DNA of 64,000 bases, taken from contig CAVQNG010000025.1 of assembly GCA_963713825.1 (NCBI GenBank), positions 160,001 to 224,000 on the forward strand. Direction: 5' to 3'. Origin of the DNA: an uncultured Acidobacteriota bacterium. Lineage in GTDB: Bacteria; Acidobacteriota; Thermoanaerobaculia; Multivoradales; JAHEKO01. Both the position numbers and the translations under genes were made by a program. Positions 44,769 to 60,674 of the stretch are shown one piece after another. The notes beneath the pieces are model-generated. The model did not search any database and was not told the origin of the DNA. It saw only the letters and a program-made list of their open reading frames with translations. Position 1 is the first letter of the stretch; each line of letters starts with the position of its first letter.

Positions 44769-45058
44769 GGTCTCACCTCCTGCAAGTGTGTATCCATCGG
44801 CCTGTCGACGGGGGGCCGAGGGCTGGGATGCAAACCCCTCTAAGCGCTTGATCGTATCCTCAAGTGGCATTCCAGGGTAGCGAAACGTCCTGGAGCCGTG
44901 ATAGAAACTCACAGCGCTTCGCAGGGTTGCCATGAAGCGCATCATTTTCGGAACGGCTACCTCGGACTCGCTCGAAGCAGCCCGATCAAGGGGTTGCTTC
45001 AGCTGTGTTCGAGTCAGTGGTGCACGTTGATTGGTGTGACGGGGAGTTTCGAGGAACC

Positions 45059-47077
45059 ATGGATCAAATGTCATCGCAGGGAGTACTGGAGTCGAGGAGC
45101 GTTGCGCCGCAGGCAGCGCCCGAAGCCGAGGAGTGGCAGGCTCGAATTCGCGATTCGATCCGAGGTGCCCGGCAGCAGCTCTTGAATCTGCAGGAGGCCG
45201 ACGGTCACTGGTGCGCCGAGCTCGAGGGCGACACCATTCTCGAGAGCGAGTACGTTCTTTTGTTGCACTTCCTGGGCCGGATTGGTGAGGAGAGGGTTCA
45301 GAAGGCGGCCAACTACCTGAGGACCAAGCAGCTGCCCGACGGGGGCTGGGGAGCCTATCCGGGCGGCGGCGCGGATGTGAGCACGTCGGTCAAGGCCTAC
45401 TTCGTGTTGAAGCTGGTCGGTGACGATCCCGATACGCCGCACATGGCAAGGGCGAGAGAGGTCATTCGCCGCAAGGGTGGACTGCACGCCTGCAATTCCT
45501 TCACCAAGCTCTATCTATCCATCTTCGGACAATACGAGTGGGACAAGAGCCCTGGTGTACCGCCCGAATTGGTGCTGCTGCCATTGTGGTTCCCGATCAA
45601 CATCTACGACATGTCCTCCTGGTCACGAGCCATCGTGGTGCCCTTGAGCATCATCTGGGCCTACAAGCCCAGCTGTCCGGTTCCTGAGCACGCGAGGCTG
45701 GACGAGCTGCTGGTCGAGAATACGAGACGGGCCGTACCACAATTCAGTCGCGCCTCGCTCCTGCACCATGGCTGGTCATTGTTCTTCCAAACCCTCGATC
45801 GGATTCACAAGCAGGCGGAAAGGTGGCATTTGATGCCGCTGCGACGCCGCGCCTTGCAGCGAGCCGAGGAGTGGATTCTCCCGAGGCTCGAGAAGAGCGA
45901 CGGGCTCGGAGCCATTTTTCCGCCCATCGTCAACACCATCATGGCTTTGCGTTGCCGAGGCTACTCGGTAGATCACCCGATCATCCAGGCCCAGATTCGG
46001 GAGCTCGAAAGGCTGGAGATCGAGACAGGCGACACGCTGCGATTGGAGCCCTGCAAATCACCCGTCTGGGACACGGCCTTGTCACTCAATGCGTTGGGTG
46101 AAAGCGACGACCATGAAGACAGGGCGCGGCTGGAACAGGGCGTCGAGTGGTTGCTGGGCAAGGAGGTCAAGGAGGTCGGGGACTGGAAGATCAAGAGCCC
46201 CGATGCCTGCGTGGGTGGTTGGTACTTCGAGTACGCCAATGAGTTCTACCCGGACTGTGACGACACCGCCCAGATCTTGTCGGCGGTGGCCAAGCTCCGC
46301 CCCTTGTCCGGGGACCTCGAGGAGCGCTATTCGGCGGCCTCTGGGCGCGCTATCTCGTGGCTCATCAGCATGCAGAACCGCGATGGCGGCTGGGCCTCCT
46401 TCGACAAGGACTGCAACAAGGAGTTCCTGACCTACGTGCCGTTCGCTGATCACAACGCCATGATCGACCCGAGCACGACGGACATTACCGCCCGGGCTCT
46501 CGAAGCGTTGTCCGCCAACGGTCACGATCTCTCTTCGGATGTCGTCCGGCGAGCCGTCGCTTTCATCCGCCGCCTGCAGAAGGGCGATGGAACCTGGTAC
46601 GGTCGCTGGGGCTGCAACTACATCTACGGTACCTGGTTGGCGCTGTCTGGACTCAAGGCTGCAGGAGAGGACCTGTCAGAACCGTGGGCCCAAAGCGCCG
46701 CCGAGTGGTTCAGAAGTTGTCAGAACTCCGACGGCGGGTGGGGCGAGCTGCCCGACTCCTATGCCGATTCCAGCAAGAAGGGAATCGGCCCCAGCACGGC
46801 CGCGCAGACCTCCTGGTCGCTTCTGGCCCTGATGTCGACGGGCGATCGAGACAGTGACAACCTCAAGCGGGGTATCGAGTACCTGTTGACTCAACAGCAG
46901 GCCGACGGTAGCTGGAAAGACGAGTGGTGGACTGGCACCGGGTTCCCAGAGGTCTTCTATCTGGACTATCATCTGTACGCAACCTACTTTTCATTGCTCG
47001 CCCTGGAGACCTATCGCAAGGTGGTCGCTGCCAACGGTGGCGATGACTCTGCGCAGGCAGGCCTTCGTGCCGTGTAG
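45059..47077 (+). CDS. shc: Squalene-hopene cyclase
   Basis: QEADGHWC, QW repeats (QLPDGGW, QNRDGGW, QNSDGGWGE, QQADGSW), MSSWSR, SPVWDT, YPDCDDTA (DxDD), TGTGFP. Confidence 0.97.
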   Translation: MDQMSSQGVLESRSVAPQAAPEAEEWQARIRDSIRGARQQLLNLQEADGHWCAELEGDTILESEYVLLLHFLGRIGEERVQKAANYLRTKQLPDGGWGAYPGGGADVSTSVKAYFVLKLVGDDPDTPHMARAREVIRRKGGLHACNSFTKLYLSIFGQYEWDKSPGVPPELVLLPLWFPINIYDMSSWSRAIVVPLSIIWAYKPSCPVPEHARLDELLVENTRRAVPQFSRASLLHHGWSLFFQTLDRIHKQAERWHLMPLRRRALQRAEEWILPRLEKSDGLGAIFPPIVNTIMALRCRGYSVDHPIIQAQIRELERLEIETGDTLRLEPCKSPVWDTALSLNALGESDDHEDRARLEQGVEWLLGKEVKEVGDWKIKSPDACVGGWYFEYANEFYPDCDDTAQILSAVAKLRPLSGDLEERYSAASGRAISWLISMQNRDGGWASFDKDCNKEFLTYVPFADHNAMIDPSTTDITARALEALSANGHDLSSDVVRRAVAFIRRLQKGDGTWYGRWGCNYIYGTWLALSGLKAAGEDLSEPWAQSAAEWFRSCQNSDGGWGELPDSYADSSKKGIGPSTAAQTSWSLLALMSTGDRDSDNLKRGIEYLLTQQQADGSWKDEWWTGTGFPEVFYLDYHLYATYFSLLALETYRKVVAANGGDDSAQAGLRAV

Positions 47078-47115
47078 AGTCGTGGCGAACTGATTGAATA
47101 TCGGAGTACGAAGAG

Positions 47116-48117
47116 ATGCGATTTCCACTGCACATCACGACCGACAACATCAAGCATTCGATGAAGAATGCGATGCAGGGCAACCGGCGCTACCCGTTCG
47201 TCCTAATGCTGGAGCCGCTCTACACCTGCAATCTGGCGTGCATCGGTTGCGCGGTCGAGCGGCACACCGGCAAGCTCAAGGATCGGTTGCCGGTCGAGCT
47301 GTGCCTGCAGGCTGTCGACGAGTCTGGTGCGCCGGGCGTGTCGCTGTGCGGTGGTGAGCCGACGGTCTATCCCGAGCTCAAGGAGCTCGTCGACGGCATT
47401 ATCGAGCGCAACCGCCACATCTATCTCTGCACCAACGCCTTGCTCATGGAAGAGAAGGTCTTCGGGCAAATCGATCCTCACAAGCGGTTGACCATCAACG
47501 TCCACTTGGACGGTATGCGGGAGACACACGATTACGTTTGCGCCCGCGATGGGGTGTTCGACAAGGCCGTCGAGATGATCAAGGAGTCGAAGCGCCTCGG
47601 CTATCACACCATTACCAACACGACGATCTTCAAGGAGACGAAGATCTCCGAAGTCGAAGAGCTCTGCGAATACATGGCCAGCCTCGATATCGATGGGATG
47701 TTGATCTCGCCTGGCTATCAGTACGAGTCCGTGGAAGAAGACATCTTCATGACTCGTCAGGACATCTACGACAAGTTCCAGCGCGTGCTGGAGATCTCCA
47801 AACGGTATCGGCTGACGTCGACTCCGATGTTCCTGGAGTTTGCCGCCGGGCTGCGCGACTACAAATGCTCACCATGGAGCACGGTGACCTTCACGCCCAA
47901 CGGCTGGAAGGGCCCCTGCTATCTGATCGGCAAGAAATTCACCTGGTCGTGGGAGGAGTTCTGGAATCTCACCGACTGGGAGTACTGGGAGTCGCGCGAA
48001 GATCGGTTGTGCCAGAACTGCCTGATGCACTCTGGCTTCGAGGCTTCCGTGGTCAAGGAGCTGCCGCGCAGTCCAGGTGACATGGCTCGTCTGATGGCCT
48101 GGAACTTGATGGGCTGA
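47116..48117 (+). CDS. hpnH: Adenosylhopane synthase, radical SAM
   Basis: YPFVLMLEPLYTCNLACIGC, GGEP, YLCTNA, VHLDG, CSPWS, PCYL, CQNCLMHSGFE. Confidence 0.92.
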   Translation: MRFPLHITTDNIKHSMKNAMQGNRRYPFVLMLEPLYTCNLACIGCAVERHTGKLKDRLPVELCLQAVDESGAPGVSLCGGEPTVYPELKELVDGIIERNRHIYLCTNALLMEEKVFGQIDPHKRLTINVHLDGMRETHDYVCARDGVFDKAVEMIKESKRLGYHTITNTTIFKETKISEVEELCEYMASLDIDGMLISPGYQYESVEEDIFMTRQDIYDKFQRVLEISKRYRLTSTPMFLEFAAGLRDYKCSPWSTVTFTPNGWKGPCYLIGKKFTWSWEEFWNLTDWEYWESREDRLCQNCLMHSGFEASVVKELPRSPGDMARLMAWNLMG

Positions 48118-48216
48118 CACGAGAAACCTCTGAGACGGGTCCCTTCTTTGCCGCAGCTTGGTGAGGGAGGTGTGAGAGCGCCCGCTTCGACCAGAGGGAG
48201 TCTCTAAGGGAATCCA

Positions 48217-49206
48217 ATGAAGGTCTTTCTCACCGGTGCCACTGGCTTCATCGGCGGGCATCTGCTGCGGTCTCTGCTCGAGGCTGGAGCAGAAGTGCGA
48301 TGCCTGACTCGGGCCCAGAGTCGGCGCAGGAATCTCGACGGTTTGGATGTCGAGGTCGCCGAGGGAGACTTACGGGACGCGAGTGCCCTGCGCTCGGGGG
48401 TCGAAGGCTGCGAGATGGTGTTCCATTGCGCTGCCGACTACCGGCTGTACAGCAAGAACCCCGAGGAGCTCTACGAGTCCAACGTAGAGGGGACTCGCAA
48501 CCTGATGCAGGCCGCCTCGGAGGTGGGGGCGCGGCGAGTGGTCTACACCAGCTCGGTCGGTGCTCTCGGTCTCGAGCCTGACGGATCACCGGCGGACGAG
48601 GAGACACCGGTCACTCTCGAGGCCATGGTGGGGCACTACAAGCGGAGCAAGTTCCTGGCAGAGCGAGTCGCCGATGATTGGGTTGAGAAGGGGCTTCCGA
48701 TCGTGATCGTCAACCCTTCGACTCCGATCGGGGAGGGTGACCTCAAACCCACCGCGACGGGCCAGATGATCGTCGACTTCCTCAATCGGAAGACTCCGGC
48801 CTATGTGGACACGGGGCTGAACCTGGTAGACGTGCACGATGTGGCCCTGGGCCATGTTCGGGCCGCAGAAAAGGGCAGGGTCGGTGAGAAGTACATCCTC
48901 GGCAATCGCGACCTGAGCCTGCGGGAGATCTACCAGACGCTTGGCAGCTTGACCGGGCTGCCGGCCCCGAAGATCAAGGTGCCGCATTGGCTGCCGCTCG
49001 CTTGGGCAGCTCTCGACACTGGAGTGAGTCGCCTTGTCGGGCGGACACCGGGAGTGCCGCTCGAGGCCGTTCGTCTATCGAGATACAAGATGTACTTCGA
49101 CGCCAGCAAAGCAGTGCGCGAGCTCGGCCTGCCCCAGACCCCCATCGAAGAACCCCTGCAGAGAGCCGTTGACTGGTACAAGACCAACGGCTACGTGACC
49201 CGCTAG
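48217..49206 (+). CDS. hpnA: Hopanoid-associated NAD-dependent epimerase/dehydratase
   Basis: TGATGFIG, FHCAADYRL, YTSSV, GHYKRSKFLAE, NPSTPIG..KPT.TG, PAYVDTGLN. Confidence 0.92.
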   Translation: MKVFLTGATGFIGGHLLRSLLEAGAEVRCLTRAQSRRRNLDGLDVEVAEGDLRDASALRSGVEGCEMVFHCAADYRLYSKNPEELYESNVEGTRNLMQAASEVGARRVVYTSSVGALGLEPDGSPADEETPVTLEAMVGHYKRSKFLAERVADDWVEKGLPIVIVNPSTPIGEGDLKPTATGQMIVDFLNRKTPAYVDTGLNLVDVHDVALGHVRAAEKGRVGEKYILGNRDLSLREIYQTLGSLTGLPAPKIKVPHWLPLAWAALDTGVSRLVGRTPGVPLEAVRLSRYKMYFDASKAVRELGLPQTPIEEPLQRAVDWYKTNGYVTR

Positions 49207-49222
49207 TCTGGATCTGGGGCCC

Positions 49223-49987
49223 ATGTCATCGACAGAACAGATCGATCCGCGCCGGACGGGTCCAGGAGTTGCAGTCGTCGCCGCCATGGAAGAGGAGCTC
49301 TACTCTCTGCGCCAGCGGCTCTCGGACGTCAGGAGGGTGGCTCTCCCTACGGGCTCGGCGGTCCGCGGGCGCCTCGAATCCCAGGAGGTCTTGCTGGCGG
49401 CCACCGGGGAGGGCGCGGCGGCCGCCGAAAAGAGGCTATCGGCCCTCTTGTCAGACCGCAGCATAGAGGCCCTTCTCGTTGTCGGAGTCGCCGGCGCAAT
49501 CTCCCCGGATCTGGCAGTCGGAGATCTCGTGGCCATCGACTCGGTCAGAGACGAGCACGGCGAGATTCCATCGCCCGACGCCTCGCTTCTGCAGCGAGCC
49601 CTCACTTCGAAGAACGTCGTGCAGGGAGGAGTGGTGAGTGTCGACAAGATCGTGGTTGACGCTGCTGCCAAACAAGCTCTCTGGCAGTCCGTTGGCGGGG
49701 GCCCGTTCCAAGTGGTCGACCTGGAGTCGGCGACTTACGCGCGACTGGCGACGGAAAAGGGAATCCCCTATTTCGTCCTGCGAGCAGTCAGCGACACCGC
49801 AAGTGAAAGTCTGCCGCTCGATTTCAATGCGTTTCGCAGCTCGGATGGGAGCATCAATCGAGGCAGGGTGGCGCGACATTTGATCTTCCATCCACATCTG
49901 GTTGGGCCCTTGAAGGACCTACGCACCCGTTTGAGAGAATGTGCGGTCTCGATGGCGAATGTCGTCGAAGAGATTCTGAGACCATGA
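49223..49987 (+). CDS. hpnG: Hopanoid-associated nucleoside phosphorylase/nucleosidase
   Basis: AAMEEE, GVAGAISPDLAVGDLV, VDLES, LRAVSD, LPLDF; hpn context. Confidence 0.85.
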   Translation: MSSTEQIDPRRTGPGVAVVAAMEEELYSLRQRLSDVRRVALPTGSAVRGRLESQEVLLAATGEGAAAAEKRLSALLSDRSIEALLVVGVAGAISPDLAVGDLVAIDSVRDEHGEIPSPDASLLQRALTSKNVVQGGVVSVDKIVVDAAAKQALWQSVGGGPFQVVDLESATYARLATEKGIPYFVLRAVSDTASESLPLDFNAFRSSDGSINRGRVARHLIFHPHLVGPLKDLRTRLRECAVSMANVVEEILRP

Positions 49988-51396
49988 GACGTCCAACAAC
50001 CTGGCTCGAGCCTTTAGCACTGAGGGCATTGGTCATCGGCCTGCTGTCGGTGAGCCTTCTGGCGGTGGGTGCTGCGGCAGAGGAGGAGTCGAAGCGGAGG
50101 CTCTTCATTGCCCTGGATGCTGTTCCCTACCAGATAGCGGCTGACGTCATGAATCCGGCCCTGGGCGACGAGGCGCTGTTCCAGGGTTTCGAGGGCCCGG
50201 TGCGGCTGGTCAGCACGTTCCCATCCTCGACGAGCGTGGCGCTGCCCGGGATCCTCGGGCCGATCGGGCTCAGGCGGTCTCCGGGTTACGAAGCCCGCTT
50301 CTTCGACTGGCAGGAGAGCAAGGTCAGGGGCGGTGGGGCCGTCAGCTATGGCCGCATCGAGTTTCCATGGCGGGATTTCTTCGATTGGGGGCGCAAGGGC
50401 GTAGCGGGCAGCGCGATCGAGGCCGTGAAGCCGGTCAAGTCGGGTATCAAGCGCCTCCGCAATGCCATGGAAGACTTCGTTCAATCGGACAAGGAGGAGT
50501 TCTGGATCTACTCTGCGGCGACGGATATCGCGGGTCACGTCATCAGTCCGCAGGCGCACGTCGACTTCTTCAAGGCGCTGGACGAGATGATTCTGGAAGC
50601 GCGCCAGGCGTCACCCGGTCGTCCTTTCGACGTCGTCGTCTTCTCCGATCACGGCATGGATGGTGGCGAGCCTCTGATCAATGTGTTCAGGCCGGCCAAG
50701 AAGGCTCTCAAGCAAGCCGGGTACCGCAGCAAGAAGCGACTGAAAGGCGCTGAAGACGTAGTGCTGACACCCTTCGGATTGGTCTCCAACTTCGAGGCCT
50801 ACACCGTCGACGAGAACAAGGCGCGGGTGGCCGAGATCCTGGCTGCCGTCGAAGGTGTGGACCTCTGCGCCTATGAGCTGGAGGAGGGCTGGCGGGTCGA
50901 AAGCCATCGGGGCAGCGCCACGTTCCTGCAGGATCAGCGCGAAGGAGAGCTCTGGTGGTCGTATGAGCCGCATCACGGCGACCCGCTGGAATTCCTGGAC
51001 GGGATCGAGCGGATGGAGAAGGCCGGCCTGGTGCGACAGGGTTGGTTGCCGGACAAAGCCACCTTCGAGGCCACTATCGATGCGGAGAATCCAGATCCCT
51101 TCTATCGCATTGCTCATGCCTTCGAGTTGACTACGAACCCTGCCTCGGTGATCTGCTCGGCGAGTCGGGGATACATGTATGGTGCTCCCCACACAGGGGT
51201 CCTGGCCCAGATCGGCAAGGGCCACCTGCGCTGGACCCACGGCGCCTTGAACCGCGATGCCACCCTCGGATTCCTGTTCAGCGATGTCGAGGGTTGGGAG
51301 GCGCCAGAGGCCATTCGTTTCGATCGTGCCATCCTGCCCTTTCACGACACTGTGGAGGGAGAGCCGGAGACCGACGCCCCGAAGCCATCCCAATAA
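49984..51396 (+). CDS. Exported alkaline-phosphatase/nucleotide-pyrophosphatase superfamily protein
   Basis: Signal peptide; IALDAVP, STFPSST (Thr nucleophile), TDIAGH, FSDHG, THGAL; ATGA overlap with hpnG. Confidence 0.82.
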   Translation: MRRPTTWLEPLALRALVIGLLSVSLLAVGAAAEEESKRRLFIALDAVPYQIAADVMNPALGDEALFQGFEGPVRLVSTFPSSTSVALPGILGPIGLRRSPGYEARFFDWQESKVRGGGAVSYGRIEFPWRDFFDWGRKGVAGSAIEAVKPVKSGIKRLRNAMEDFVQSDKEEFWIYSAATDIAGHVISPQAHVDFFKALDEMILEARQASPGRPFDVVVFSDHGMDGGEPLINVFRPAKKALKQAGYRSKKRLKGAEDVVLTPFGLVSNFEAYTVDENKARVAEILAAVEGVDLCAYELEEGWRVESHRGSATFLQDQREGELWWSYEPHHGDPLEFLDGIERMEKAGLVRQGWLPDKATFEATIDAENPDPFYRIAHAFELTTNPASVICSASRGYMYGAPHTGVLAQIGKGHLRWTHGALNRDATLGFLFSDVEGWEAPEAIRFDRAILPFHDTVEGEPETDAPKPSQ

Positions 51397-51451
51397 GCCA
51401 AGAAATCTACGCGGTGAGTCGACCGAGTCGCGGGCAGCCCCCTCACGGCGG

Positions 51452-51480
51452 TTTTCAGCATTGCAGGTAAGCTGTAAGAT
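51452..51480 (+). promoter_or_regulatory. Candidate sigma70 promoter for the mevalonate sub-cluster
   Basis: TTTTCA-17 nt-TAAGAT in the 124-nt gap before the prenyl synthase gene. Confidence 0.35.
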
Positions 51481-51520
51481 AACGACTCATACCAGTCCCC
51501 ATTTGATGTCGAACAGGCCG

Positions 51521-52648
51521 ATGAGTGGAACGATGAGTGTCGAAGAGGCAGGCCGCAGGCAGGCAACGCAAGAGGCCGGCACCGATTTTGATGAGCTGTT
51601 GGTCTCTTTCCGGGATCGGCTGGAGACCGACCTCATGGCCTGGGTCGAGGCCAAGCGCCTTGCGACCCGCGCCGAGCTCGGGGAGGCCGACGAGCTGACT
51701 GGAGTGCTGTCGGAGTTCCTGGCGCGCGATGGGAAGCGATTGCGCCCTGCCCTGGTCTACTACAGCTACAGAGCTTGTGGCGGCGATTCGGAGCCGGTTG
51801 TCATGCCGGTGGCCATGGCTGTCGAGCTGCTGCACACCTATCTTCTGGTGCACGATGACATCATGGATCACGCCAAGACGCGGCGTGGAGAGCCGGCCGT
51901 GCATGTGCTGTTCAGCGAGTTCCACCGCGACCGTGGATGGCACGGAGACTCCAGCCACTTCGGCACCTCTGTGGGTATCTTGCTCGGTGACCTGGCGGAG
52001 TCGTACGCCGTCGAGCTCTACTCGTCTTCCGAGATGTCGGAGGCAGTGAGAGACGGTGTGCGGCAGTGCTTTTCGACGATGTGCCAGGAGGTCATTGTTG
52101 GACAGTATTTGGAGATGACAGCCGGGTATCGAGGCAATCTGACCGAGGCAGAGCTGCTGCGGATCCTGCAAATGAAATCAGGCCGCTACAGTGTCGAGCG
52201 ACCGGTTCAGCTGGGAGCACTGCTGGCTGCAGCTTCACGGGACACCCTCGATGCTCTGACCCGATACGGGGCTCGGCTTGGTGAGGCCTTCCAACTTCAG
52301 GACGATCTCCTGGGGATGTTTGGCGATGTCGAGACGGTTGGCAAGCCGGTAGGCGAAGATCTGGCCGAGGGCAAGTACACGATCTTGATTCACAGCGCCC
52401 TCGAGAAGCTCTCGCCAGCGGATAGAAAAACCGTCGAAAGGGCGCTTGGCAACGCCGATATTCGAGAGCCGGAGGTGAGAGAGGTTCAGAAGCTCATCGA
52501 GGGTGTCGGGGCTCGCCAACAGGTCGTCGAAATGATCGAAACGCGCCTTCAGGCCGCCGACCAGGCCCTCGACCAGGCCGCAGTGACGGGCCCGGGAGCG
52601 AGTTTCCTCGAGGGGCTGATGGAGTACCTGCGTGGGCGAGAGCGCTAG
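51521..52648 (+). CDS. idsA: Short-chain trans-prenyl diphosphate synthase (archaeal/IdsA-type FPP/GGPP synthase)
   Basis: GKRLRP, ELLHTYLLVHDDIMD..TRRG, GQYLE, KSGRY, AFQLQDDLLG, GKPVGEDLAEGKYT. Confidence 0.92.
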   Translation: MSGTMSVEEAGRRQATQEAGTDFDELLVSFRDRLETDLMAWVEAKRLATRAELGEADELTGVLSEFLARDGKRLRPALVYYSYRACGGDSEPVVMPVAMAVELLHTYLLVHDDIMDHAKTRRGEPAVHVLFSEFHRDRGWHGDSSHFGTSVGILLGDLAESYAVELYSSSEMSEAVRDGVRQCFSTMCQEVIVGQYLEMTAGYRGNLTEAELLRILQMKSGRYSVERPVQLGALLAAASRDTLDALTRYGARLGEAFQLQDDLLGMFGDVETVGKPVGEDLAEGKYTILIHSALEKLSPADRKTVERALGNADIREPEVREVQKLIEGVGARQQVVEMIETRLQAADQALDQAAVTGPGASFLEGLMEYLRGRER

Positions 52649-52672
52649 GCCGCGGATCTACCGAGACAAATT

Positions 52673-53692
52673 ATGACTTCGCACGAAGACCGGGATCGCA
52701 AGGCCGAGCACATCCAGTTGTCCCTCGACGACCGGATGCAGTTGCACGGGCACTACTTCGATGCATACTCCTTCGAGCACCAGGCGCTGCCCGAGCTAGA
52801 TCTCCAGGAGGTGGAGGTCTCGACCCGATTCCTCGACAAAGCCATCGCAGCGCCTCTCCTGATTTCCTGTATGACGGGCGGCACCGGCGATGCGGTCCGC
52901 ATCAACCGGCATCTTGCAGAGGCTGCTGAGGAGGTCGGGATCGCCCTTGGGATCGGCTCACAGCGCAAGGCACTCGAAGATCCCAGCCTGGTCGAGAGCT
53001 TCAAGGTCCGGCAGTGGGCTCCGACAATTCCCCTGCTCGGCAACCTGGGTGCGGTGCAGTTGAATTATGGCTATGGCCTGGACGAGTGTCGAGCCGCCGT
53101 GGAAATGATCGAGGCCGACGCTCTGGTGCTACACCTCAATCCTCTGCAGGAAGCGATCCAGCCAGAAGGGCAGTGCGACTTCAGCGGTTTGATCTCCAAG
53201 GTCGGGCAGATCGTGGAGGGTCTGGAAGTGCCGGTCATCGTCAAGGAGGTCGGGTCGGGCATCTCCCAAGGATTGGCCACCAGGCTGTGGGATGTCGGAG
53301 TGATAATCGTCGATACGGCTGGAGTTGGTGGAACGAGCTGGGCGCGAATCGAAGGCGCACGGGCCCGGGACACAGAGATCGGAGAGCTCTTTGCTGGCTG
53401 GGGGATTCCGACACCGGCGAGCATTCGACAGCTGCGCCGAGTACCCGGTCTCCAGATCATCGGCAGCGGTGGCGTCAGCAACGGCCTCGATGTCGCCAAG
53501 GCGATCGCTCTCGGGGCGGAGATGGCGGGCATGGCGCAGCCCTTCCTGGTCGCCGCGGATGATTCGGCCGAGGCCGTCGTGAGAAAGATCAGGCGCACGA
53601 CAAGAGAGCTCGAGATCACCATGTTCTGCACCGGGGCGCGCAATCTCGAGGCCCTACAGCAAGTCGAGTTACGTCATCCTAGCGAGGATTGA
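52673..53692 (+). CDS. fni: Type 2 isopentenyl-diphosphate isomerase (FMN)
   Basis: RKAEHI, HQALPE, MTGG, GSQR, HLNPLQE, KEVGSG, GGTSW, WGIPT. Confidence 0.96.
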   Translation: MTSHEDRDRKAEHIQLSLDDRMQLHGHYFDAYSFEHQALPELDLQEVEVSTRFLDKAIAAPLLISCMTGGTGDAVRINRHLAEAAEEVGIALGIGSQRKALEDPSLVESFKVRQWAPTIPLLGNLGAVQLNYGYGLDECRAAVEMIEADALVLHLNPLQEAIQPEGQCDFSGLISKVGQIVEGLEVPVIVKEVGSGISQGLATRLWDVGVIIVDTAGVGGTSWARIEGARARDTEIGELFAGWGIPTPASIRQLRRVPGLQIIGSGGVSNGLDVAKAIALGAEMAGMAQPFLVAADDSAEAVVRKIRRTTRELEITMFCTGARNLEALQQVELRHPSED

Positions 53693-53698
53693 AGCACC

Positions 53699-54967
53699 AT
53701 GACCTCTGCACAGCAAGATTCCGTGGATCGTGAGGAACTGGTTCGACAGTTGGTCGAGGGTGAGCGGCGCTGGCACGAGTTGCCGGAAGGGATGCCGGCT
53801 CACGTTCAAGCCAAGATCCGACGTCGTGCCCTGGAGGCCATGACCGGTGTCCAGCTCGACAACATCGCCGCCTACACTCTCGATCCGGTGCGAGCTTCAA
53901 CGCGACACGCGGAGAACTTCATCGGTGCGACGCAGATTCCCGTCGGCATCTGCGGACCGCTCAAGGTCAAGGGCACTTGGGTCAGTGTCGAGGAGGATCT
54001 TCACGTACCGTTGGCGACCAGCGAAGGAGCGCTGATCGCGAGTATCAACCGGGGCTGCCGAGCCCTGCGTGAAGCGGGGGGCGCTGTCGTTCGTGTCGAA
54101 GACGTCGGAATGACCCGAGCGCCGGTTTTTCGCACACTCGGAATCGATGACACCCGGCGCTTTCTCGACTGGGTGCGCCAGAACGACTCGAAGATTCGTC
54201 AGGTGGCGGAGGCGACCAGTAACCATCTCGAGCTCCTGGATATCAAGCCGCAGACTTTTGGCAGTTCGATCTATCTCCGCTTTCGCTTCCGGACGGGGGA
54301 TGCCATGGGCATGAACATGGCAACGATCGCTTGCGATCGAGTCGTGCGGGACCTCATCGAGCCGGGCACCGGCATTCCCTGCGTAGCGCTGTCGGGCAAC
54401 TTCTGCGTCGACAAGAAACCCTCGGCGGTCAACTTCCTGGAAGGCCGGGGCAAGCGAATCTACGCCGAAGTGGTGCTCGATGGCGAGATTCTCGAGCGCT
54501 GCCTGAAGAGCACTTCTCGATCGCTGGTGGAGGTGCAGTATCGGAAGAACCTCCTGGGCTCGATCGCTGCCGGTTCGATGGGATTCAATGCCCACTATGC
54601 GAACGTTCTGGCTGCGGCCTTCATTGCCATGGGTCAGGACGTGGCACAGGTGGTCGAAGGGGCAATGGGGGTGACCTGCATCGAACCCCGGGGCGACGAT
54701 GCCGTCTTCGCCTCGGTGTATCTCCCGGACGTGCCGTTGGGTGTCGTCGGTGGTGGTACGGCACTGGGCCCGCAAAAGGAGGCCCTGGAGGTCATCGGCG
54801 CCGTTGCCGACCCCGAGAACCCCGGTGCTGGAGCGATGCGATTGGCAGAGATTCTGGGCGCGATGGTCCTGGCTGGCGAGCTTTCATTGCTGGCTGCCTT
54901 CACCTCTGGAGACCTTGCTGGGGCCCACGAGCAGCTCGGCCGCGGCGCCATTCCCGACGCAACCTAG
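53699..54967 (+). CDS. hmgA: HMG-CoA reductase, class I (NADPH, archaeal-like)
   Basis: ENFIG, PLATSEGALIASINRG, MTRAP, GDAMGMNM, SGNFCVDKKP (cis-loop), GQDVAQ, VGGGT, AHEQLGR. Confidence 0.95.
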   Translation: MTSAQQDSVDREELVRQLVEGERRWHELPEGMPAHVQAKIRRRALEAMTGVQLDNIAAYTLDPVRASTRHAENFIGATQIPVGICGPLKVKGTWVSVEEDLHVPLATSEGALIASINRGCRALREAGGAVVRVEDVGMTRAPVFRTLGIDDTRRFLDWVRQNDSKIRQVAEATSNHLELLDIKPQTFGSSIYLRFRFRTGDAMGMNMATIACDRVVRDLIEPGTGIPCVALSGNFCVDKKPSAVNFLEGRGKRIYAEVVLDGEILERCLKSTSRSLVEVQYRKNLLGSIAAGSMGFNAHYANVLAAAFIAMGQDVAQVVEGAMGVTCIEPRGDDAVFASVYLPDVPLGVVGGGTALGPQKEALEVIGAVADPENPGAGAMRLAEILGAMVLAGELSLLAAFTSGDLAGAHEQLGRGAIPDAT

Positions 54968-55040
54968 AGTTGCCCCCGAGCATGATGGAGAGTTCCCCTC
55001 TGGCGCCCGAAGCAGGCTCGACGCTGAGGGCGCGTTCCTG

Positions 55041-56120
55041 ATGCCGCGACACGTTCTGGCCACCACCCCTGGCAAGCTCATTCTGATGGGGGAGCATGCG
55101 GCGGTCTATGGACGGCCGGCCCTGGTAGCGGCTGTAGCACCTCGCACGAGGGTGGAGGTGACCGAATACACCGCAGGGGTCGTGGTGGAGCTACCCGACC
55201 TGGATCGGGAGCTGCGCAGCAACTGGTCCGAGTTGGCGGCAGCAGCGGAGGCTGCGCGGATCCAGTGGGAAGCTTTCTCCGAGAACCCGATAGCGGAGCG
55301 CTTCGAGGCCCTGCGAAGCTCCGACCCTGCCCACCTGGTCGAGCTCGCTCTCGGGGAGGTGGCGGTCGAGCTGGGAGCCGACCTGCCTCCGATGACCCTG
55401 CATGTGAAGTCGGACCTACCTGTCGGCTCGGGATTCGGCAGCTCGGCGGCCGTGGCGGTGGGGCTCGTGGGCGGGGTTCTGTGCTTCATGGAAGGCGTCG
55501 CGGCTCGGCCACTCGTCGATCGCATCGCTTTCGATGTCGAGCGTCGCCAGCACGGGATGCCTTCCGGCGTTGATCACCGAACGGTGCTGCAAGGCGGCAT
55601 TCTGTGGGCCGAGCGGAGCTCTGGGGGTGAGCTTCTCACCACGCCGGTCGAAGGCGGTCAGCTCCTTGGCTCCCGCATCCAGGTGCTGCATACAGGGCAG
55701 CCGTCGGAGACGACGGGTGACGTGGTGGCGGCGGTTCGGCAACTCGCCTACGAAGACCAGGCGGGCTTCGACAGGTTGCTGCATCGGATGGAGTCGTCCG
55801 TCGACGGTTTTCGTGACTGGCTGAGGAGTGGGGCGGGCGATCTCGATCGAGCGATCACGGCGATTCGAGACTATGAGACATGCCTGGAAGCCATAGGTGT
55901 TGTTCCTGCATCTGTGCAGCAGGCGATTCGAGAAGTGGAGGCGCTTGGTGGGGCCGCCAAGATCTCTGGCGCCGGGGCCCTTTCGGGCGAGGCCGCGGGT
56001 TGTCTTCTCGTCTGCTGGCCCGACACCTGGGATGGTCGGTCGCCGAAAGGTCTGTCGGCATACAATCTCCAGGATGTGGAGTTGGGGGTGCCAGGATTGA
56101 CTTGCGAGGTCGAGGGATGA
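55041..56120 (+). CDS. mvk: Mevalonate kinase
   Basis: PGKLILMGEHAAVYG, LPVGSGFGSSAA, HGMPSGVD, AKISGAG. Confidence 0.93.
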   Translation: MPRHVLATTPGKLILMGEHAAVYGRPALVAAVAPRTRVEVTEYTAGVVVELPDLDRELRSNWSELAAAAEAARIQWEAFSENPIAERFEALRSSDPAHLVELALGEVAVELGADLPPMTLHVKSDLPVGSGFGSSAAVAVGLVGGVLCFMEGVAARPLVDRIAFDVERRQHGMPSGVDHRTVLQGGILWAERSSGGELLTTPVEGGQLLGSRIQVLHTGQPSETTGDVVAAVRQLAYEDQAGFDRLLHRMESSVDGFRDWLRSGAGDLDRAITAIRDYETCLEAIGVVPASVQQAIREVEALGGAAKISGAGALSGEAAGCLLVCWPDTWDGRSPKGLSAYNLQDVELGVPGLTCEVEG

Positions 56121-57121
56121 CAGCAAAAGCCACAGTCGTCGCACCGGCGAATATCGCCTTCATCAAGTACTGGGGCACGCAGGACTGGGATCAGACGTTG
56201 CCCTTCAACCCCTCCATCTCTATGACTCTACGTGAGTGTGTCACCCGCACGACCGTCGAGCTCATCGAACGTTCAGAGGGCGACTCGGTCCTTCTCAGAA
56301 CGGCAGAGGGTAGCCTCGAGCCAGCCGCCGAAGCGTTCCGTCAGCGCCTCGAGCCCCACCTTGACCGGCTCCGCAGATGGGCTGGTGAAGAAGTCGCGTT
56401 TCGAGTCGCCACCGAGAATAGCTTCCCCATGGGGGCCGGCATGGCTTCGTCGGCATCGGGCTTCGCTGCCCTCACACTGGCCGTGGTGGCTGCCCTTGGC
56501 AAGCAGACCTCAGGGGAAGAGGCGTCCGTTCTGGCACGCCTCAGTGGGTCCGGATCAGCCTCTCGATCGGTCCTGGGAGGCTATGTTCGGTGGCCCGCTG
56601 GAGAGGAACCTGGAGAGGAGCATGCGGTTCAGTTGGCATCGGCGGACCACTGGGACTTGCGCGATGTCGTAGCTGTCCTCCAGGAGCAGGCCAAGGAGGT
56701 TTCCTCTCGCGAGGGGCACGAGCGGGCACCTTCGAGTCCCTACTTCGAGCCCAGGCAGAAGTTGCTTCCGGACCGCCTCGAGACCGTCACCCAAGCGATT
56801 CTGGCGCGGGACTTTTCGTCCTTGGCGCAGACTGTCGAAGAGGAGGCGATCGACCTCCACCTCATCGCCATGTCTTCCCACCCGCCAATTTTCTACTGGA
56901 GACCAGGAACCCTCGAGGTCCTGGCGGCCATTCGCCTCCTGCGGCAGGATGGGGTCGAGGTCTGTGCAACCATGGACGCTGGTGCCAACGTGCACATGAT
57001 CTGCACGCCAGACTCCGAAGCCGCGGTGGCAGAGGTGGTGGGAGCGATAACAGAAGTCGGTTATTTGATCTACGACGGTGTTGGGCAGGGTCCCAGGACG
57101 ATTGAAGAGCACCTGGTCTGA
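56117..57121 (+). CDS. mvaD: Mevalonate decarboxylase family protein; probably mevalonate-5-phosphate decarboxylase
   Basis: ANIAFIKYWG, SISMTL, GMASSASG, GSGSASRS, KEVSSREGH, TMDAGANVH; followed by IPK, and no PMK in the cluster. Confidence 0.9.
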   Translation: MTAKATVVAPANIAFIKYWGTQDWDQTLPFNPSISMTLRECVTRTTVELIERSEGDSVLLRTAEGSLEPAAEAFRQRLEPHLDRLRRWAGEEVAFRVATENSFPMGAGMASSASGFAALTLAVVAALGKQTSGEEASVLARLSGSGSASRSVLGGYVRWPAGEEPGEEHAVQLASADHWDLRDVVAVLQEQAKEVSSREGHERAPSSPYFEPRQKLLPDRLETVTQAILARDFSSLAQTVEEEAIDLHLIAMSSHPPIFYWRPGTLEVLAAIRLLRQDGVEVCATMDAGANVHMICTPDSEAAVAEVVGAITEVGYLIYDGVGQGPRTIEEHLV

Positions 57122-57125
57122 AGCG

Positions 57126-57953
57126 ATGGCATCGACGATAGAAGTCGTTCTCGTCAAGCTGGGCGGCAGCCTGATCACCGACAAACGGCGACCGGAGACG
57201 GCGCGAGAGGATGTTATCGAGCGTCTGGCCGGGGAGCTCGCGGCTCTGCGGCAGGCTGGGGTGCGCCTCGTCCTGGGTCATGGTAGCGGCTCCTTCGGTC
57301 ATGTGGCGGCTGCGAAACACGGCATCCACGAGGGGGTGGCAACGCCCGATCAGCTTCTTGGCGTGACCGAGACTCAGGATCGGGCGGCAAACCTGAACCG
57401 ACGGGTCCTCGGCGCCCTGCTAAGGAGCTCGGTTCCGGCATTCTCATTGGCGCCGTCGAGTTTCCTTGTTTCGGCGGGAGGAAGACCGGACGAGCTATGG
57501 ATCGAGTCTCTGCTGGGCGCCCTGCAGGTGGGAATGCTCCCAGTGGTCTATGGAGACGTCGTCATGGACCGCCAGCTGGGAGCCTCGATCGCGTCGACCG
57601 AAGCCGTCTTCCTGGCCCTGGCCGAGGGACTCCAGGCCCGTGGCATGGTAGTTCGGCGCAGCATCTGGCTGGGCGAGACCGACGGCATCTACGACAGTCA
57701 GGGCGTGACGATCGGGGAGCTGCGACCCGACACCGTTGGGGACCTGCTGGACCAGATCCAGGGGGCCTCAGGAACCGACGTCACGGGAGGGATGAGACTT
57801 CGTCTGGAGACAGCGACTCGTCTCGCTGGGCTCGGAGTCGAGTCCTGGATAGCGAATGGCCTTCAGCCCGGGCTGCTGGCTGAGATCATGAGCGGCCATT
57901 GCGCCAAGGGAACGAGGGTGTTGGCGGCTCCGACTTCTCAGCCCCCAAGCTGA
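57126..57953 (+). CDS. ipk: Isopentenyl phosphate kinase
   Basis: VKLGGSLITDK, HGSGSFGH (IPK signature His), PVVYGD, DVTGGM. Confidence 0.92.
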   Translation: MASTIEVVLVKLGGSLITDKRRPETAREDVIERLAGELAALRQAGVRLVLGHGSGSFGHVAAAKHGIHEGVATPDQLLGVTETQDRAANLNRRVLGALLRSSVPAFSLAPSSFLVSAGGRPDELWIESLLGALQVGMLPVVYGDVVMDRQLGASIASTEAVFLALAEGLQARGMVVRRSIWLGETDGIYDSQGVTIGELRPDTVGDLLDQIQGASGTDVTGGMRLRLETATRLAGLGVESWIANGLQPGLLAEIMSGHCAKGTRVLAAPTSQPPS

Positions 57954-58034
57954 CATGCGCTCGAGAGAAATCGACGGCGAGGCAAAGGGCGAGGGCTGTT
58001 AGGATGAGCGGCCAAAGGAACGCAGAAGGCTGAA

Positions 58035-59030
58035 ATGAGCGGTGATCGAGACGAGGCTTCAGTTGTGACCGAGCGCAATCGGGCTGGCGATCAGAGGCAG
58101 GATGAGGGCGAGTTGTTGCAGGATCTCCTGGTCAAGACAAGTCGGACGTTTGCCCTGGCCATTCCACTTCTGCCGGATCCCACGCTGCGTGAAGTCACGA
58201 TTGCCTATCTGTTGTTTCGGATTGCGGACACTTTCGAGGACGCCAGCGTGCTGTGGGACAAACCGCAGCAGATCCGGGCACTGCAGGACTTTGGCGATCT
58301 TCTGCGCCAACCTTCTGTGGAGCGGGCTCGGGAGCTGTCGCGTCAGTGGCAGTCCAAGCCCTCGTCAGAACACGCGGGCTATTTAGAGCTATTGGACAGG
58401 ACGCCGGATGTCATCGCGGCCTTTCTCGAGCTCAGCCCGGGAGCCCAGAGGGCAGTGGCCCATCACACGATTCGGACGGCCGAGGGAATGGCCTCTGTGG
58501 TGGAGCGGACCGGTGCCGACGGTGTGTTGCGGCTGGATAGCATCCCCGAGCTGCAGAGTTATTGCTACATCGTTGCGGGCATCGTAGGAGAGATGCTCAC
58601 AGACCTGTTTCTTCTGGAGCGCCCCAACCTGATCCCCATCGCCGGCTACCTGCGACAGCGGTCGGTGGCTTTCGGTGAGGGTCTGCAGCTCGTCAACATC
58701 CTCAAGGACTCGGCCGACGACAGCGTCGAAGGCCGCAACTATCTGCCCTACGACATCGAGCGACGAGAAGTCTTCGATCTGGCCCGGCAAGACCTCGAAG
58801 CGGCTACGGAGTACACCTTGGCGATTCAACAGGCTGGGGGGCCGGACGGACTCGTTCTGTTCACCGGCCTGCCCGTAGCTCTGGCCTGGGCGACTCTCGA
58901 CAAGGTGGAGAAAGACGGACCGGGCGCGAAGATCGGCCGCGTCGAGGTCTTTGCCATTAACAGTCGCTTGAAGAAGGCCGTCGCCGCCGGCCGGCCGGCA
59001 ATCCAAACCCCGAACAAGAAGCCGGCCTGA
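58035..59030 (+). CDS. sqs: Squalene synthase (single-enzyme farnesyl-diphosphate farnesyltransferase type)
   Basis: KTSRTFALAI flap, YLLFRIADTFED, YCYIVAGIVGEMLT, FGEGLQLVNILKD, GRNYLP, AKIGR. Confidence 0.88.
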   Translation: MSGDRDEASVVTERNRAGDQRQDEGELLQDLLVKTSRTFALAIPLLPDPTLREVTIAYLLFRIADTFEDASVLWDKPQQIRALQDFGDLLRQPSVERARELSRQWQSKPSSEHAGYLELLDRTPDVIAAFLELSPGAQRAVAHHTIRTAEGMASVVERTGADGVLRLDSIPELQSYCYIVAGIVGEMLTDLFLLERPNLIPIAGYLRQRSVAFGEGLQLVNILKDSADDSVEGRNYLPYDIERREVFDLARQDLEAATEYTLAIQQAGGPDGLVLFTGLPVALAWATLDKVEKDGPGAKIGRVEVFAINSRLKKAVAAGRPAIQTPNKKPA

Positions 59031-60622
59031 TGGGTCGCTACCTTCGTCGTATCCTCTTTCTCCAGACTCTCCAGGTTCTGCTCGTAGCCGTGGCAGGTGC
59101 CCAGATCTGGGCTGGCCAGGCCGAAGTCCGGGGTCTTGTCACCGACCTGGACCAGGTGCCCATAGCGGCAGCCGAAGTCACGCTGTATCTCGCGGATCAG
59201 CCTGGTGTCGGTCCGACATCTGTCGAGACAGACGTCCAGGGTCGCTGGAGGATCGGGCGCATTGCCGAAGGGCGATGGGATCTCGTCATCAAGGCTCGAG
59301 ATTTCATGACTGTCGAAGGGTGGGTACAGTCGTCGATAGGACACTCCGAAGAAGTCGAGGTCTGGATGCGCCCCCTAGCCGAGGTCACGGCCGCCTTCGC
59401 CGAGAGCTCCTCGTCGGTTCTACGGTGGCTGGAAAAGGGCGACACCTTGCTGGAGCAAGGCCGGTATCCGGCGGCCAGAGAAGAGTATGAAAAGGCCCTT
59501 GGGGCCGTTCCGAGGACGTCGTGGGCCAAGATCCTGCAGTCCATGGCCAGGACCTACTACCTCGAGGGGGACCTCGAGGTGGCGATCAGGACGCTTCAGT
59601 GGGCGCTGGTGGTCGATCCTGTGGATCTGATTTCCACACAGCTCTATTCCAACCTGCTGGAGCAGTTGGGTCGAGGCCCGGAAGCTGCGGAGTTCCTGAG
59701 GGAGCTACGGGCCAAGAGTCCGGCCGAGCTGGAAGAGCTGGCCGACGAGTACGGCTCAGTCTTGCCGAAGTCGCCAGTAGCGGACCCTCCGTCGAACGAT
59801 CGCACCAAGGTCCCCATCGATGAGCCCGAGGCGGGCAGAACCGGCTCCTATCGTGTCCGGTTCGAGGAGGCGAGCCCCCACTCGTCGTTGGAGGTGCTCC
59901 TGCAGCGCTTGGATCTCGATCTGGCTGCAGTCGAGGCTATCGATCCAGACGCCGGCCGCTACGACCTGAAAGGTGAGAGCTTCAGGGTCTTCGTGCCGCC
60001 CGCGTACTCTCCAGATGCAGATTTCGGGCTCTTCGTATGGATCAGTCCGACTCCTTTTGGTGGCTTCGCTTCGCCGGAGATGCAGAGTGCGCTCGAGGCG
60101 AGTCGACTCATCTGGGTCGGGGCCGATCGGGTCGGCAACGGCCGAGCCCGCTGGTATCGATACCTCCTCGCCCTGGATGCGGCGCACAATATGCGGCAGC
60201 TCTATCGCATCGACGAGGATCGGATCTTCGTTGGCGGCTACTCGGGGGGAGGCAGGGTTACCAGTGGATTGGCCATGCTCTACCCGGAGGTCTTTCGGGG
60301 GGGGTTCTCGCTGTCCGGGTGCGACTATCCGGAGCTCCTGCCGGTCCCCGACAAGCCGGGAGCTCACTGGCCGCCTGGGTTTCCTGCGCCCCCGAAGCGA
60401 GCGCTACGCGAGGTGAAATCGTCGAGTCGATTCGTGTTGCTGACGGGCGAGCTCGATTTTAATCGCGCCCAGACCCGCAAGACCTATCTGAAGATGCTCG
60501 ACGAGGGCTTCGAGCACGTCGTCTATTTCCAGGTTCCAAATGCCAGCCACTACGACCACCCAGACGCAGAAACCCTGACCCAGGCCTTCCGCTTCCTCAC
60601 CGCCGATTCTGCAAGCCCATAG
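59030..60622 (+). CDS. Exported multidomain protein: carboxypeptidase-regulatory-like + TPR + alpha/beta-hydrolase
   Basis: Signal peptide; GLVTD..PIAAAEV, TDVQGRW; TPR helices; IDEDRIFVGGYSGGG nucleophile elbow, TGELDFN, ASH. Confidence 0.8.
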   Translation: MGRYLRRILFLQTLQVLLVAVAGAQIWAGQAEVRGLVTDLDQVPIAAAEVTLYLADQPGVGPTSVETDVQGRWRIGRIAEGRWDLVIKARDFMTVEGWVQSSIGHSEEVEVWMRPLAEVTAAFAESSSSVLRWLEKGDTLLEQGRYPAAREEYEKALGAVPRTSWAKILQSMARTYYLEGDLEVAIRTLQWALVVDPVDLISTQLYSNLLEQLGRGPEAAEFLRELRAKSPAELEELADEYGSVLPKSPVADPPSNDRTKVPIDEPEAGRTGSYRVRFEEASPHSSLEVLLQRLDLDLAAVEAIDPDAGRYDLKGESFRVFVPPAYSPDADFGLFVWISPTPFGGFASPEMQSALEASRLIWVGADRVGNGRARWYRYLLALDAAHNMRQLYRIDEDRIFVGGYSGGGRVTSGLAMLYPEVFRGGFSLSGCDYPELLPVPDKPGAHWPPGFPAPPKRALREVKSSSRFVLLTGELDFNRAQTRKTYLKMLDEGFEHVVYFQVPNASHYDHPDAETLTQAFRFLTADSASP

Positions 60623-60674
60623 GCCATTACTCCTCTTGTCATGGGGTAGGATCGGCCCAACGAAGGAGACTGCC

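Follow-up and report, generated by a model that had tools for sequence, protein, structure and literature searches.

Hopanoid genes in one row with a putative mevalonate pathway of the phosphomevalonate decarboxylase plus isopentenyl phosphate kinase type in an uncultured acidobacterium

Two described systems come closest to the locus reported here, a row of twelve genes at positions 45059-59030 of a 64,000-nucleotide stretch of DNA (the window) from an uncultured bacterium of the Acidobacteriota class Thermoanaerobaculia, in which hopanoid genes are followed by genes of a mevalonate pathway. One of these, the alternative mevalonate pathway of the haloarchaeal and Chloroflexi type, was reportedly described by VanNice et al. 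in 2014. In the available sections of Dellas et al. 2013 (PMC3857490), it consists of mevalonate kinase (MVK), phosphomevalonate decarboxylase (PMD) and isopentenyl phosphate kinase (IPK), without a phosphomevalonate kinase, and is accompanied by a type 2 isomerase. Hoshino and Gaucher (2018; PMC6107057) name Chloroflexi as the only bacterial phylum with this route, which they call MPD/IPK for mevalonate 5-phosphate decarboxylase and IPK, in a main text that does not mention Acidobacteria, and the available part of a 2024 survey (PMC11052028) gives the same phylum distribution. The other system is that of Acidobacteria bacterium Mor1 (subdivision 22), for which Sinninghe Damsté et al. 2017 (PMC5462960) reported shc and hpnH, the majority of the mevalonate genes and a homologue of squalene synthase, and which in their words may make bacteriohopanepolyols (BHPs) ‘in a completely different way’. 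Table 3 of that paper lists Mor1 as lacking every gene of the methylerythritol phosphate (MEP) pathway, and its main text contains no occurrence of isopentenyl phosphate, of its kinase or of phosphomevalonate.

The window shares with the haloarchaeal and Chloroflexi systems the predicted MVK-PMD-IPK succession, the lack of a recognised phosphomevalonate kinase and the type 2 isomerase. Its decarboxylase is closest to the PMD of Anaerolinea and carries the same lysine-absent, histidine-present signature. Unlike those systems, the host is an acidobacterium and the genes lie in one tight, operon-like row joined to hopanoid genes. Among 62 more distant loci, mostly from Chloroflexota, 61 have no mevalonate gene near fni, and neither a mevalonate kinase gene nor an hpn gene adjoins fni in any of them, save for a weak, 24% shc-like match in L081. 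The reductase of the window is class I, whereas Chloroflexi are listed as class II in the main text of Hoshino and Gaucher (PMC6107057). Like the window, Mor1 (our locus L013) has shc, hpnH, an hpnG-like gene, fni, hmgA, mvk, mvaD, ipk and a Sqs-type gene in one row and no HpnCDE. However, the Mor1 row lacks hpnA, idsA and the gene for a protein resembling nucleotide pyrophosphatases/phosphodiesterases (NPP), its fni is only ~63% identical to that of the window, and Mor1 is tabulated without MEP genes (PMC5462960) whereas the genome of the window keeps six. The arrangement was not recognised as a described one when it was first noted. Full-text searches, whose scope excluded subscription papers and supplements, returned nothing on it beyond Sinninghe Damsté et al. 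2017, and that judgement survives to the extent that the PMD/IPK type is unrecognised in the available text of that paper; mevalonate genes, shc and hpnH, on the other hand, had already been reported there for Mor1.

We consider it likely that the locus is an isoprenoid ‘super-cluster’, in which a PMD/IPK-type mevalonate pathway and a hopanoid module stand in one row. Under this proposal, idsA-fni-hmgA-mvk-mvaD-ipk-sqs would be the only mevalonate pathway of the organism, of the haloarchaeal and Chloroflexi type. The class I reductase would convert 3-hydroxy-3-methylglutaryl coenzyme A (HMG-CoA) to mevalonate, MVK would yield mevalonate 5-phosphate, the PMD-like decarboxylase would turn this into isopentenyl phosphate, and IPK would produce isopentenyl diphosphate (IPP), downstream of which the type 2 isomerase, the only short-chain prenyl synthase of the genome and its only credible squalene synthase would act. 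The products of shc, hpnH, hpnA, hpnG and the NPP-like gene would then carry squalene to hopene or diploptene and on to C35 adenosyl- and ribosyl-hopane derivatives. The hopanoid half would be a variable module docked upstream of a mevalonate housekeeping core. Judging from gene content, the organism presumably does produce hopanoids.

Gene identities and the predicted route to squalene

Gene families were called with curated NCBIfam/TIGRFAM and Pfam models by comparing bit scores with the model cut-offs. Both these families and the list of open reading frames (ORFs) bear out the original prediction of twelve co-oriented genes, which are intact, all on the plus strand and arranged as shc-hpnH-hpnA-hpnG-like-NPP-like-idsA-fni-hmgA-mvk-mvaD-ipk-sqs (Table 1). 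The ATGA overlaps and short gaps expected from the same source are present as well, with overlaps at the hpnG/NPP-like and mvk/mvaD boundaries and intergenic gaps, from 5′ to 3′, of 38, 99, 16, 109, 24, 6, 73, 4 and 81 nt. Each gene is single copy in the genome of the window (G000; 5.4 Mb, 38 contigs, 96% complete), of which the window is G000:C25:160001-224000. Catalytic motifs are preserved in squalene-hopene cyclase (SHC) and HpnH (Table 1), in Sqs (DTFED and DSADD) and in HMG-CoA reductase (DAMGMN). In the PDB, the reductase matches 6hr7 best (378.6 bits), with class I enzymes of plants and humans coming next. For the hpnG-like gene, the HpnG model is the top NCBIfam match (116 bits, compared with 97.5 for the model of methylthioadenosine/S-adenosylhomocysteine nucleosidase), and the assignment depends on its context, with hpnA just ahead of it.

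The enzymes from mevalonate to IPP are the part of the row that defines the type of pathway. All ten PDB sequence matches of the mvk product are mevalonate kinases. The MvaD protein matches 6n0x best (244 bits), which is the PMD of Anaerolinea thermophila (PMC9254496), and 15 diphosphomevalonate decarboxylase sequences reach at most 149 bits. At the column of the decarboxylase lysine (YWGK motif) the window protein has Thr21, and at a methionine column (later G-M motif) it has His201. Anaerolinea PMD has Asn and His at these columns, while its mutant entry 6n0z has Lys and Met. The same two columns (Lys, His) are named in the available text of PMC11052028 as discriminating PMD from decarboxylases, and Table 4 of Dellas et al. 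(PMC3857490) has the residue of the lysine column in its list of those that tell the two activities apart. All 12 acidobacterial-type homologues from related loci carry Thr, Ala or Ile at the lysine column and keep the histidine.

For IPK, the best seven of eight PDB matches are IPKs or close relatives and the eighth is FomA; the motifs KLGGS, GSFGH and TDVTGG correspond to the Lys-x-Gly-Gly, Gly-His and Asp-x-Thr-Gly elements in the conserved-residue list available from PMC3857490. The mvaD and ipk genes are separated by 4 nt and form an adjacent pair in 13 related loci. No phosphomevalonate kinase was found in G000 with TIGR01220 or NF040957, and the sole other MVK-like paralogue detected with phmmer and the window proteins is sugar-kinase-like. 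A search for the animal-type kinase with PF04275 was negative, and this negative is uninformative because its control matched in no genome. A PMD-like MvaD, an IPK above its cut-off and the failure of these searches to find a phosphomevalonate kinase together support the originally proposed route, and we regard the order MVK, then PMD, then IPK as highly probable, with the specificities of MvaD and IPK predicted from residues and similarity.

IdsA has a Tyr five residues ahead of a DDIMD motif that has no insertion, a pattern that presumably resembles archaeal bifunctional C15/C20 enzymes. The only other member of the prenyl synthase family in G000 is octaprenyl-synthase-like, so IdsA would have to supply farnesyl diphosphate for everything. 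Sqs scores higher with its best NCBIfam model (Table 1) than with those of HpnD (41.7) and HpnC (36.7), its best PDB matches are eukaryotic squalene synthases (47-50 bits), and an HpnD-class protein over cut-off is absent from all 13 genomes of the family (G000 and 12 others), HpnE not having been searched for. These scores support squalene formation by one Sqs-type enzyme and not by HpnCDE, as had been proposed. A second SQS_PSY protein at G000:C25:401902-402894 on the minus strand (L099:5902-6894) was considered as HpnD and rejected; it is very divergent (40.6 bits) and has unrelated neighbours (efflux, amidase).

The claim that one locus leads from HMG-CoA to C35 hopanoids is accurate for gene content. 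HMG-CoA synthase, however, is encoded on another contig (C3) by a divergent copy that scores 182 with TIGR01835 (under 360) and has both Pfam halves over threshold; its neighbourhood contains no thiolase or other mevalonate gene, and its neighbours are unrelated.

Table 1. Features of the row, its flank and the MEP genes of the same genome (window positions with likeliest starts, or genome contig positions where G000 is given; bit scores with model cut-offs in brackets)
Feature	Position	Strand	Evidence
shc, squalene-hopene cyclase, 672 aa	45059..47077	+	TIGR01507 691 bits (cut-off 431); DCDD at residue 399; six QW
hpnH, radical-SAM adenosyl-hopene transferase	47116..48117	+	TIGR03470 363.5 (225); Radical_SAM and DUF3463; CNLACIGC
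hpnA, hopanoid-associated NAD-dependent sugar epimerase/dehydratase-like	48217..49206	+	TIGR03466 471 (367.65)
hpnG-like purine nucleoside phosphorylase/nucleosidase	49223..49987	+	PF01048 94.4; TIGR03468 (HpnG) 116, under 187
NPP-type (alkaline-phosphatase superfamily) phosphodiesterase-like, 470 aa	49984..51396	+	ATGA overlap with hpnG; fold and residues
Gap between hopanoid and mevalonate halves, 109 nt	51397..51505		No terminator-like site on + strand; junction kept in L009-L012 and L014
idsA, short-chain trans-prenyl diphosphate synthase (putatively C15/C20)	51506..52648	+	PF00348 201.8; every NCBIfam match under cut-off
fni, type 2 isopentenyl-diphosphate isomerase	52673..53692	+	TIGR02151 390.5 (281.3)
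hmgA, class I (NADPH-type) HMG-CoA reductase	53699..54967	+	PF00368 376.6; TIGR00533 436, just below 441.8
mvk, mevalonate kinase	55041..56120	+	TIGR00549 137.7, under 163
mvaD, phosphomevalonate-decarboxylase-like GHMP enzyme	56117..57121	+	TIGR01240 223.5 (171); ATGA overlap with mvk
ipk, isopentenyl phosphate kinase	57126..57953	+	NF040647 158.6 (120)
sqs, single-enzyme squalene-synthase-type protein	58035..59030	+	PF00494 112; TIGR01559 86.7, under 287
Downstream gene, CarboxypepD_reg, TPR and esterase/polyhydroxybutyrate-depolymerase-like segment	59030..60622	+	Overlaps sqs stop by 1 nt
dxr	G000 C3:1466872-1468005		
ispD/ispF	G000 C25:564090-565272		
ispE	G000 C1:254708-255487		
ispG	G000 C25:248719-249858		~25 kb past window end
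ispH	G000 C3:514271-515104		

Conservation and lineage distribution

The row was compared with 18 acidobacterial-type loci (L009-L026) whose fni is at least 59% identical to that of the window, in addition to the more distant loci mentioned above. The closest public loci are from Thermoanaerobaculia or Acidobacteriota metagenome-assembled genomes (MAGs). Hopanoid genes stand beside fni in 10 of the 18. Three loci (L009, L010 and L012) have the identical order of twelve genes, L011 has it as far as its contig extends, and reduced forms of the cluster occur in L013 (Mor1), L014, L016, L020, L024 and L026. The other eight show no hopanoid genes in the available stretch; two of them (L019 and L021) are on contigs of at most 6.2 kb, and six (L015, L017, L018, L022, L023 and L025) hold the mevalonate genes alone. 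The gene arrangement is beyond chance. Because the mevalonate half also stands alone in relatives, it looks like a conserved housekeeping core.

Several rows depart from these patterns. L020 (CAYXXN010000115.1, 6-8100) and L026 contain the variant shc-hpnH-hpnA-hpnG-NPP-like-fni-sqs, in which sqs follows fni directly and hmgA, mvk, mvaD and ipk are absent from the 9.3-kb contig. In L027, from a MAG labelled Nevskiaceae, mvaD, ipk and fni are adjacent (8221-11000), and the MvaD protein has both the decarboxylase lysine and the PMD histidine. L025, labelled as a Rhodothermales MAG, carries an acidobacterial-like fni-hmgA-mvk-mvaD-ipk row with 44-63% identity. The rows of L027 and L025 could reflect gene transfer or mis-binning.

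On a wider scale, 201 genomes of the class were sampled, and the counts cover 48 genomes of the order of the window and 152 from the rest of the class. IPK is encoded in 44 of the 48 order genomes and in none of the 152, and is thus a lineage trait of the order, while shc is found in 27 of the 48 and 35 of the 152. Both genes are present in 28 order genomes, G000 included. The proposed co-location of shc with ipk is seen in six of these 28, where the two genes lie at most 10.2 kb apart (G000, G004, G062, G116, G136 and G148). In a sample of 301 genomes from the phylum, IPK occurs in 26, shc in 56 and both in 11, of which six, from five families, have the genes 6-10 kb apart. These tallies include a few unpublished genomes (G006, G034, G127, G157, G196 and G200), and no conclusion rests on them. 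Two shc genes carry one in-frame stop each, a TAG in G402 (C5:887671-889551; shc 8.4 kb from ipk) and a TGA in G054 (C1:889110-891053), and may be pseudogenes or reflect sequencing errors.

Origin of the C5 units and competing explanations

A number of observations weigh against the reading that we favour. Three products, those of mvk, hpnG and sqs, score under their NCBIfam cut-offs. The MvaD protein passes the curated cut-off for diphosphomevalonate decarboxylase (TIGR01240), scores no more than 153 (cut-off 475) with the haloarchaeal MvaD model, and retains a decarboxylase-like Ser-Ser-Arg stretch where the Anaerolinea enzyme has Gly-Ser-Thr. Among the 28 order genomes that encode both, 13 have shc at least 200 kb from ipk on one contig, so linkage of the two is not required, and another nine have them on different contigs. 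Thermoanaerobaculum aquaticum, the cultured member of subdivision 23 (Thermoanaerobaculia), lacks shc according to the available text of PMC5462960, in which its BHPs and hopenes were not analysed. Above all, dxr, ispD, ispE, ispF, ispG and ispH are intact and over cut-off in G000 (Table 1), and a second source of IPP is possible there if 1-deoxy-D-xylulose 5-phosphate (DXP) is provided by another enzyme. One family of the class (f17) has neither dxs nor IPK in any of its 28 genomes, and another (f15) has neither in any of four; whole families of this kind hint at a cryptic DXP route or another IPP pathway in the class. Because six of the seven MEP genes are retained, the original prediction of hopanoids made from an archaeal-like precursor route stands for the genes and the route but not for an exclusive mevalonate origin in G000. 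From the genes present we infer that mevalonate, rather than a dxs-less MEP remnant, is the more likely feed.

These MEP genes leave room for an organism with two pathways, in which a dxs-less MEP pathway would serve housekeeping, with DXP from another enzyme, and the mevalonate module would be dedicated to squalene and hopanoids. Mevalonate clusters do serve secondary metabolites in some actinomycetes. Retention of ispH looks selected because it is kept alongside IPK in all genomes of two families of the order (f8, 6 of 6; f10, 5 of 5) and in G000 and two of its six sampled relatives in family f1; overall, ispH was found in 22 of 61 genomes of the order sample (all of f8, f9 and f10, single genomes of f5 and f12, and the f1 genomes just named) and not in the other 39. 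Lineages such as f17 with neither dxs nor IPK also fit two pathways, as does the proposal, in the available text of PMC5462960, that aceE substitutes for dxs in acidobacteria without it, six cultured examples of which are listed. Yet dxs itself is over cut-off in just 2 of 31 relatives and 6 of 48 order genomes, in contrast to 109 of 152 elsewhere in the class. No dxs over cut-off was found in G000, where the best match (73 bits against 466) is a fused E1 alpha-beta 2-oxoacid dehydrogenase. In six related loci the mevalonate module occurs without the hopanoid genes, and it holds the only short-chain prenyl synthase of the genome, both of which fit a housekeeping role. Moreover, the sister genus g13 (G017 and G136, 99% and 98% complete) lacks dxs, dxr, ispG and ispH. 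Both of its genomes encode shc, ipk and the NPP-like gene, which form one row in G136, while in G017 shc is found on a different contig; mevalonate must therefore feed any hopanoid of this genus. We judge the two-pathway arrangement unlikely, although it is the strongest competitor.

A classical mevalonate pathway would require that MvaD be a diphosphomevalonate decarboxylase, that an unrecognised kinase act on mevalonate 5-phosphate and that IPK serve only in salvage. The TIGR01240 score and the Ser-Ser-Arg stretch are compatible with this, the PF04275 search has no bearing on an animal-type kinase, and the available text of PMC3857490 reports homologues of IPK from organisms that use the classical route. 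However, MvaD is nearer to the solved PMD by ~95 bits, the replaced lysine and kept histidine recur in every acidobacterial-type homologue compared, a GHMP-type phosphomevalonate kinase was found neither with two models nor by the paralogue search, and mvaD and ipk are tightly paired, which makes a classical pathway quite improbable. Still less credible is an artefact of assembly or binning that joined hopanoid and mevalonate clusters of different organisms. The 109-nt gap at 51397-51505 and the division of the genome into 38 contigs, as for a MAG, might invite the suspicion, and a chimera at 51400-51520 had been named as a possible flaw. The same junction and synteny recur in five loci of separate assemblies (L009, L010, L011, L012 and L014), and this refutes a chimera. 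Furthermore, shc and ipk are 6-10 kb apart on one contig in eight genomes (G004, G062, G116, G136, G148, G337, G402 and G510), GC content is even along the locus (0.60-0.65), and environmental DNA runs contain most of the central part of the row (see below), leaving an artefact next to no chance. The super-cluster with a PMD/IPK-type pathway thus remains the reading that we prefer.

Hopanoid clusters of sister orders provide a further comparison. There, shc has a copy of dxs at a distance of 5-10 kb (as in G099 C191:103954-115951, G174 C23:40429-50174 and G143 C2:30462-42615). The shc-adjacent copies score ~690-715 bits, a second dxs of ~835 bits is located elsewhere in G036 and G056, and the copy beside shc looks like a dxs associated with the hopanoid cluster. 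As in the window, therefore, a precursor-supply gene stands beside shc, suggesting that this is a general pattern and that the supply module was swapped in the lineage of the window, where it is a whole mevalonate pathway instead of dxs and where squalene would be made by Sqs instead of HpnCDE.

The fifth gene, environmental records and wider meaning

The fifth gene had been called an ‘AP enzyme’, and its product is NPP-type-like, within the alkaline-phosphatase superfamily, by fold and residues, although it falls under the threshold of PF01663. The protein has an N-terminal hydrophobic helix, and the first 4 nt of its gene are shared with hpnG. Sequence comparison with Pfam, NCBIfam and the PDB gives no match over threshold (PF01663 yields only 17.3 bits), and 264 homologues are annotated ‘hypothetical’. 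A confident AlphaFold model (predicted local distance difference test score 86) matches ENPP6, the Xanthomonas (Xac) NPP and phosphonoacetate hydrolase best in Foldseek, with probability 1.0 and template modelling scores of 0.45-0.52. Residues D45, T83, D181, H185, D222, H223 and H419 are invariant in 23 sequences, so that the Asp/His metal ligands and the Thr nucleophile position of the NPP/ENPP branch are retained along with the fold. The protein differs from that branch in being only 12-15% identical to it, in its hydrophobic helix and in its confinement, within the class sample, to family f1 with cluster genes.

An alignment profile applied to the 201 class genomes (E value of 1e-20 or better) located the NPP-like gene in five, all of family f1; four of these (G000, G004, G136 and G148) have it within the cluster, and G017 has it next to ipk. 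Wherever a locus shows hpnA, the NPP-like gene is there too, and L013 has neither; in L026, the contig with the NPP-like gene is too short for hpnA to be visible. In subdivision 1 acidobacteria, a gene termed ‘ug1’ comes after hpnA-hpnG according to the available text of PMC5462960. Identity of the NPP-like gene with ‘ug1’ was considered and is unsupported, the profile having matched family f1 only at E 1e-20, a threshold at which distant homology is possible. We speculate that the NPP-like protein participates in tailoring of the ribosyl side chain, perhaps by acting on a phosphorylated intermediate.

Sediments commonly contain the sequence. It is present nearly unchanged in sixteen DNA runs (12 studies), in which 71-79% of the words sampled from positions 47000-56999 of the window occur; their labels are sediment, marine sediment, salt marsh and freshwater sediment, with two runs unlabelled. 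Eleven of the twelve genes, all but ipk, are matched in part at 93-100% by contigs from RNA libraries (four runs, three studies). One contig spans the mvk/mvaD overlap and another the hpnA/hpnG junction; stretches that have no such cover, among them most of hpnA and ipk, are uninformative in both directions. These contigs are a hint of expression, and a weak one because DNA carry-over is possible; they cannot show a single transcript, although the row may well be co-transcribed.

Hopanoids and fossil hopanes are read as bacterial biomarkers, and the carbon and hydrogen isotope values of hopanoids depend on the C5 pathway of origin. If BHPs are made from mevalonate by these sediment bacteria, the isotopic baseline of this hopanoid source would be a different one. 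Relative to the accessible literature, four points are new: the recognition of acidobacterial mevalonate genes as PMD/IPK type, their status as a lineage-wide trait, the repeated docking of a hopanoid module on them, and the presence of a family-specific NPP-like gene. A phosphoribosyl-hopane intermediate has been proposed in hopanoid side-chain synthesis. More tentatively, and with somewhat more doubt than confidence, we suggest that several uncultured sediment lineages of Acidobacteriota, among them the greater part of one order in the class of the window and families elsewhere in the phylum, draw the C5 units of their hopanoids wholly or mainly from the PMD/IPK route, and that the cluster-specific, membrane-anchored NPP-like protein is a new side-chain tailoring enzyme; one possibility is that, co-occurring with HpnA, it removes the phosphate from the phosphoribosyl-hopane intermediate. 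If true, this would be the first hopanoid case of PMD/IPK supply and the first bacterial occurrence outside Chloroflexi within the searchable literature. The finding itself bears on the published claim that Chloroflexi alone among bacterial phyla have the MPD/IPK route, and on the like picture in the 2024 survey: in the present samples, IPK with a PMD-like decarboxylase is a lineage trait of an acidobacterial order. The compact, operon-like locus would also suit heterologous expression.

Several minor features accompany the row. A scan of positions 44500-60800 gave two promoter-like sites (2.3 expected by chance) and two terminator-like sites (8.8 expected), none of them useful. Farther along the same contig, a MamK-family actin-like protein (375 bits, cut-off 400) is encoded on the plus strand at L099:8162-9208 (G000:C25:404161-405207), with no other magnetosome sign among the genes examined. 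The gene that follows sqs (Table 1) is conserved at 70% in L009 and L010, is missing from this place in L012 and is probably a passenger. Immediately upstream of the cluster, with a divergent TPR gene between, a DUF3604 protein (799.6 bits) is encoded at 41864-43777 on the plus strand, and it is also found upstream in L011.

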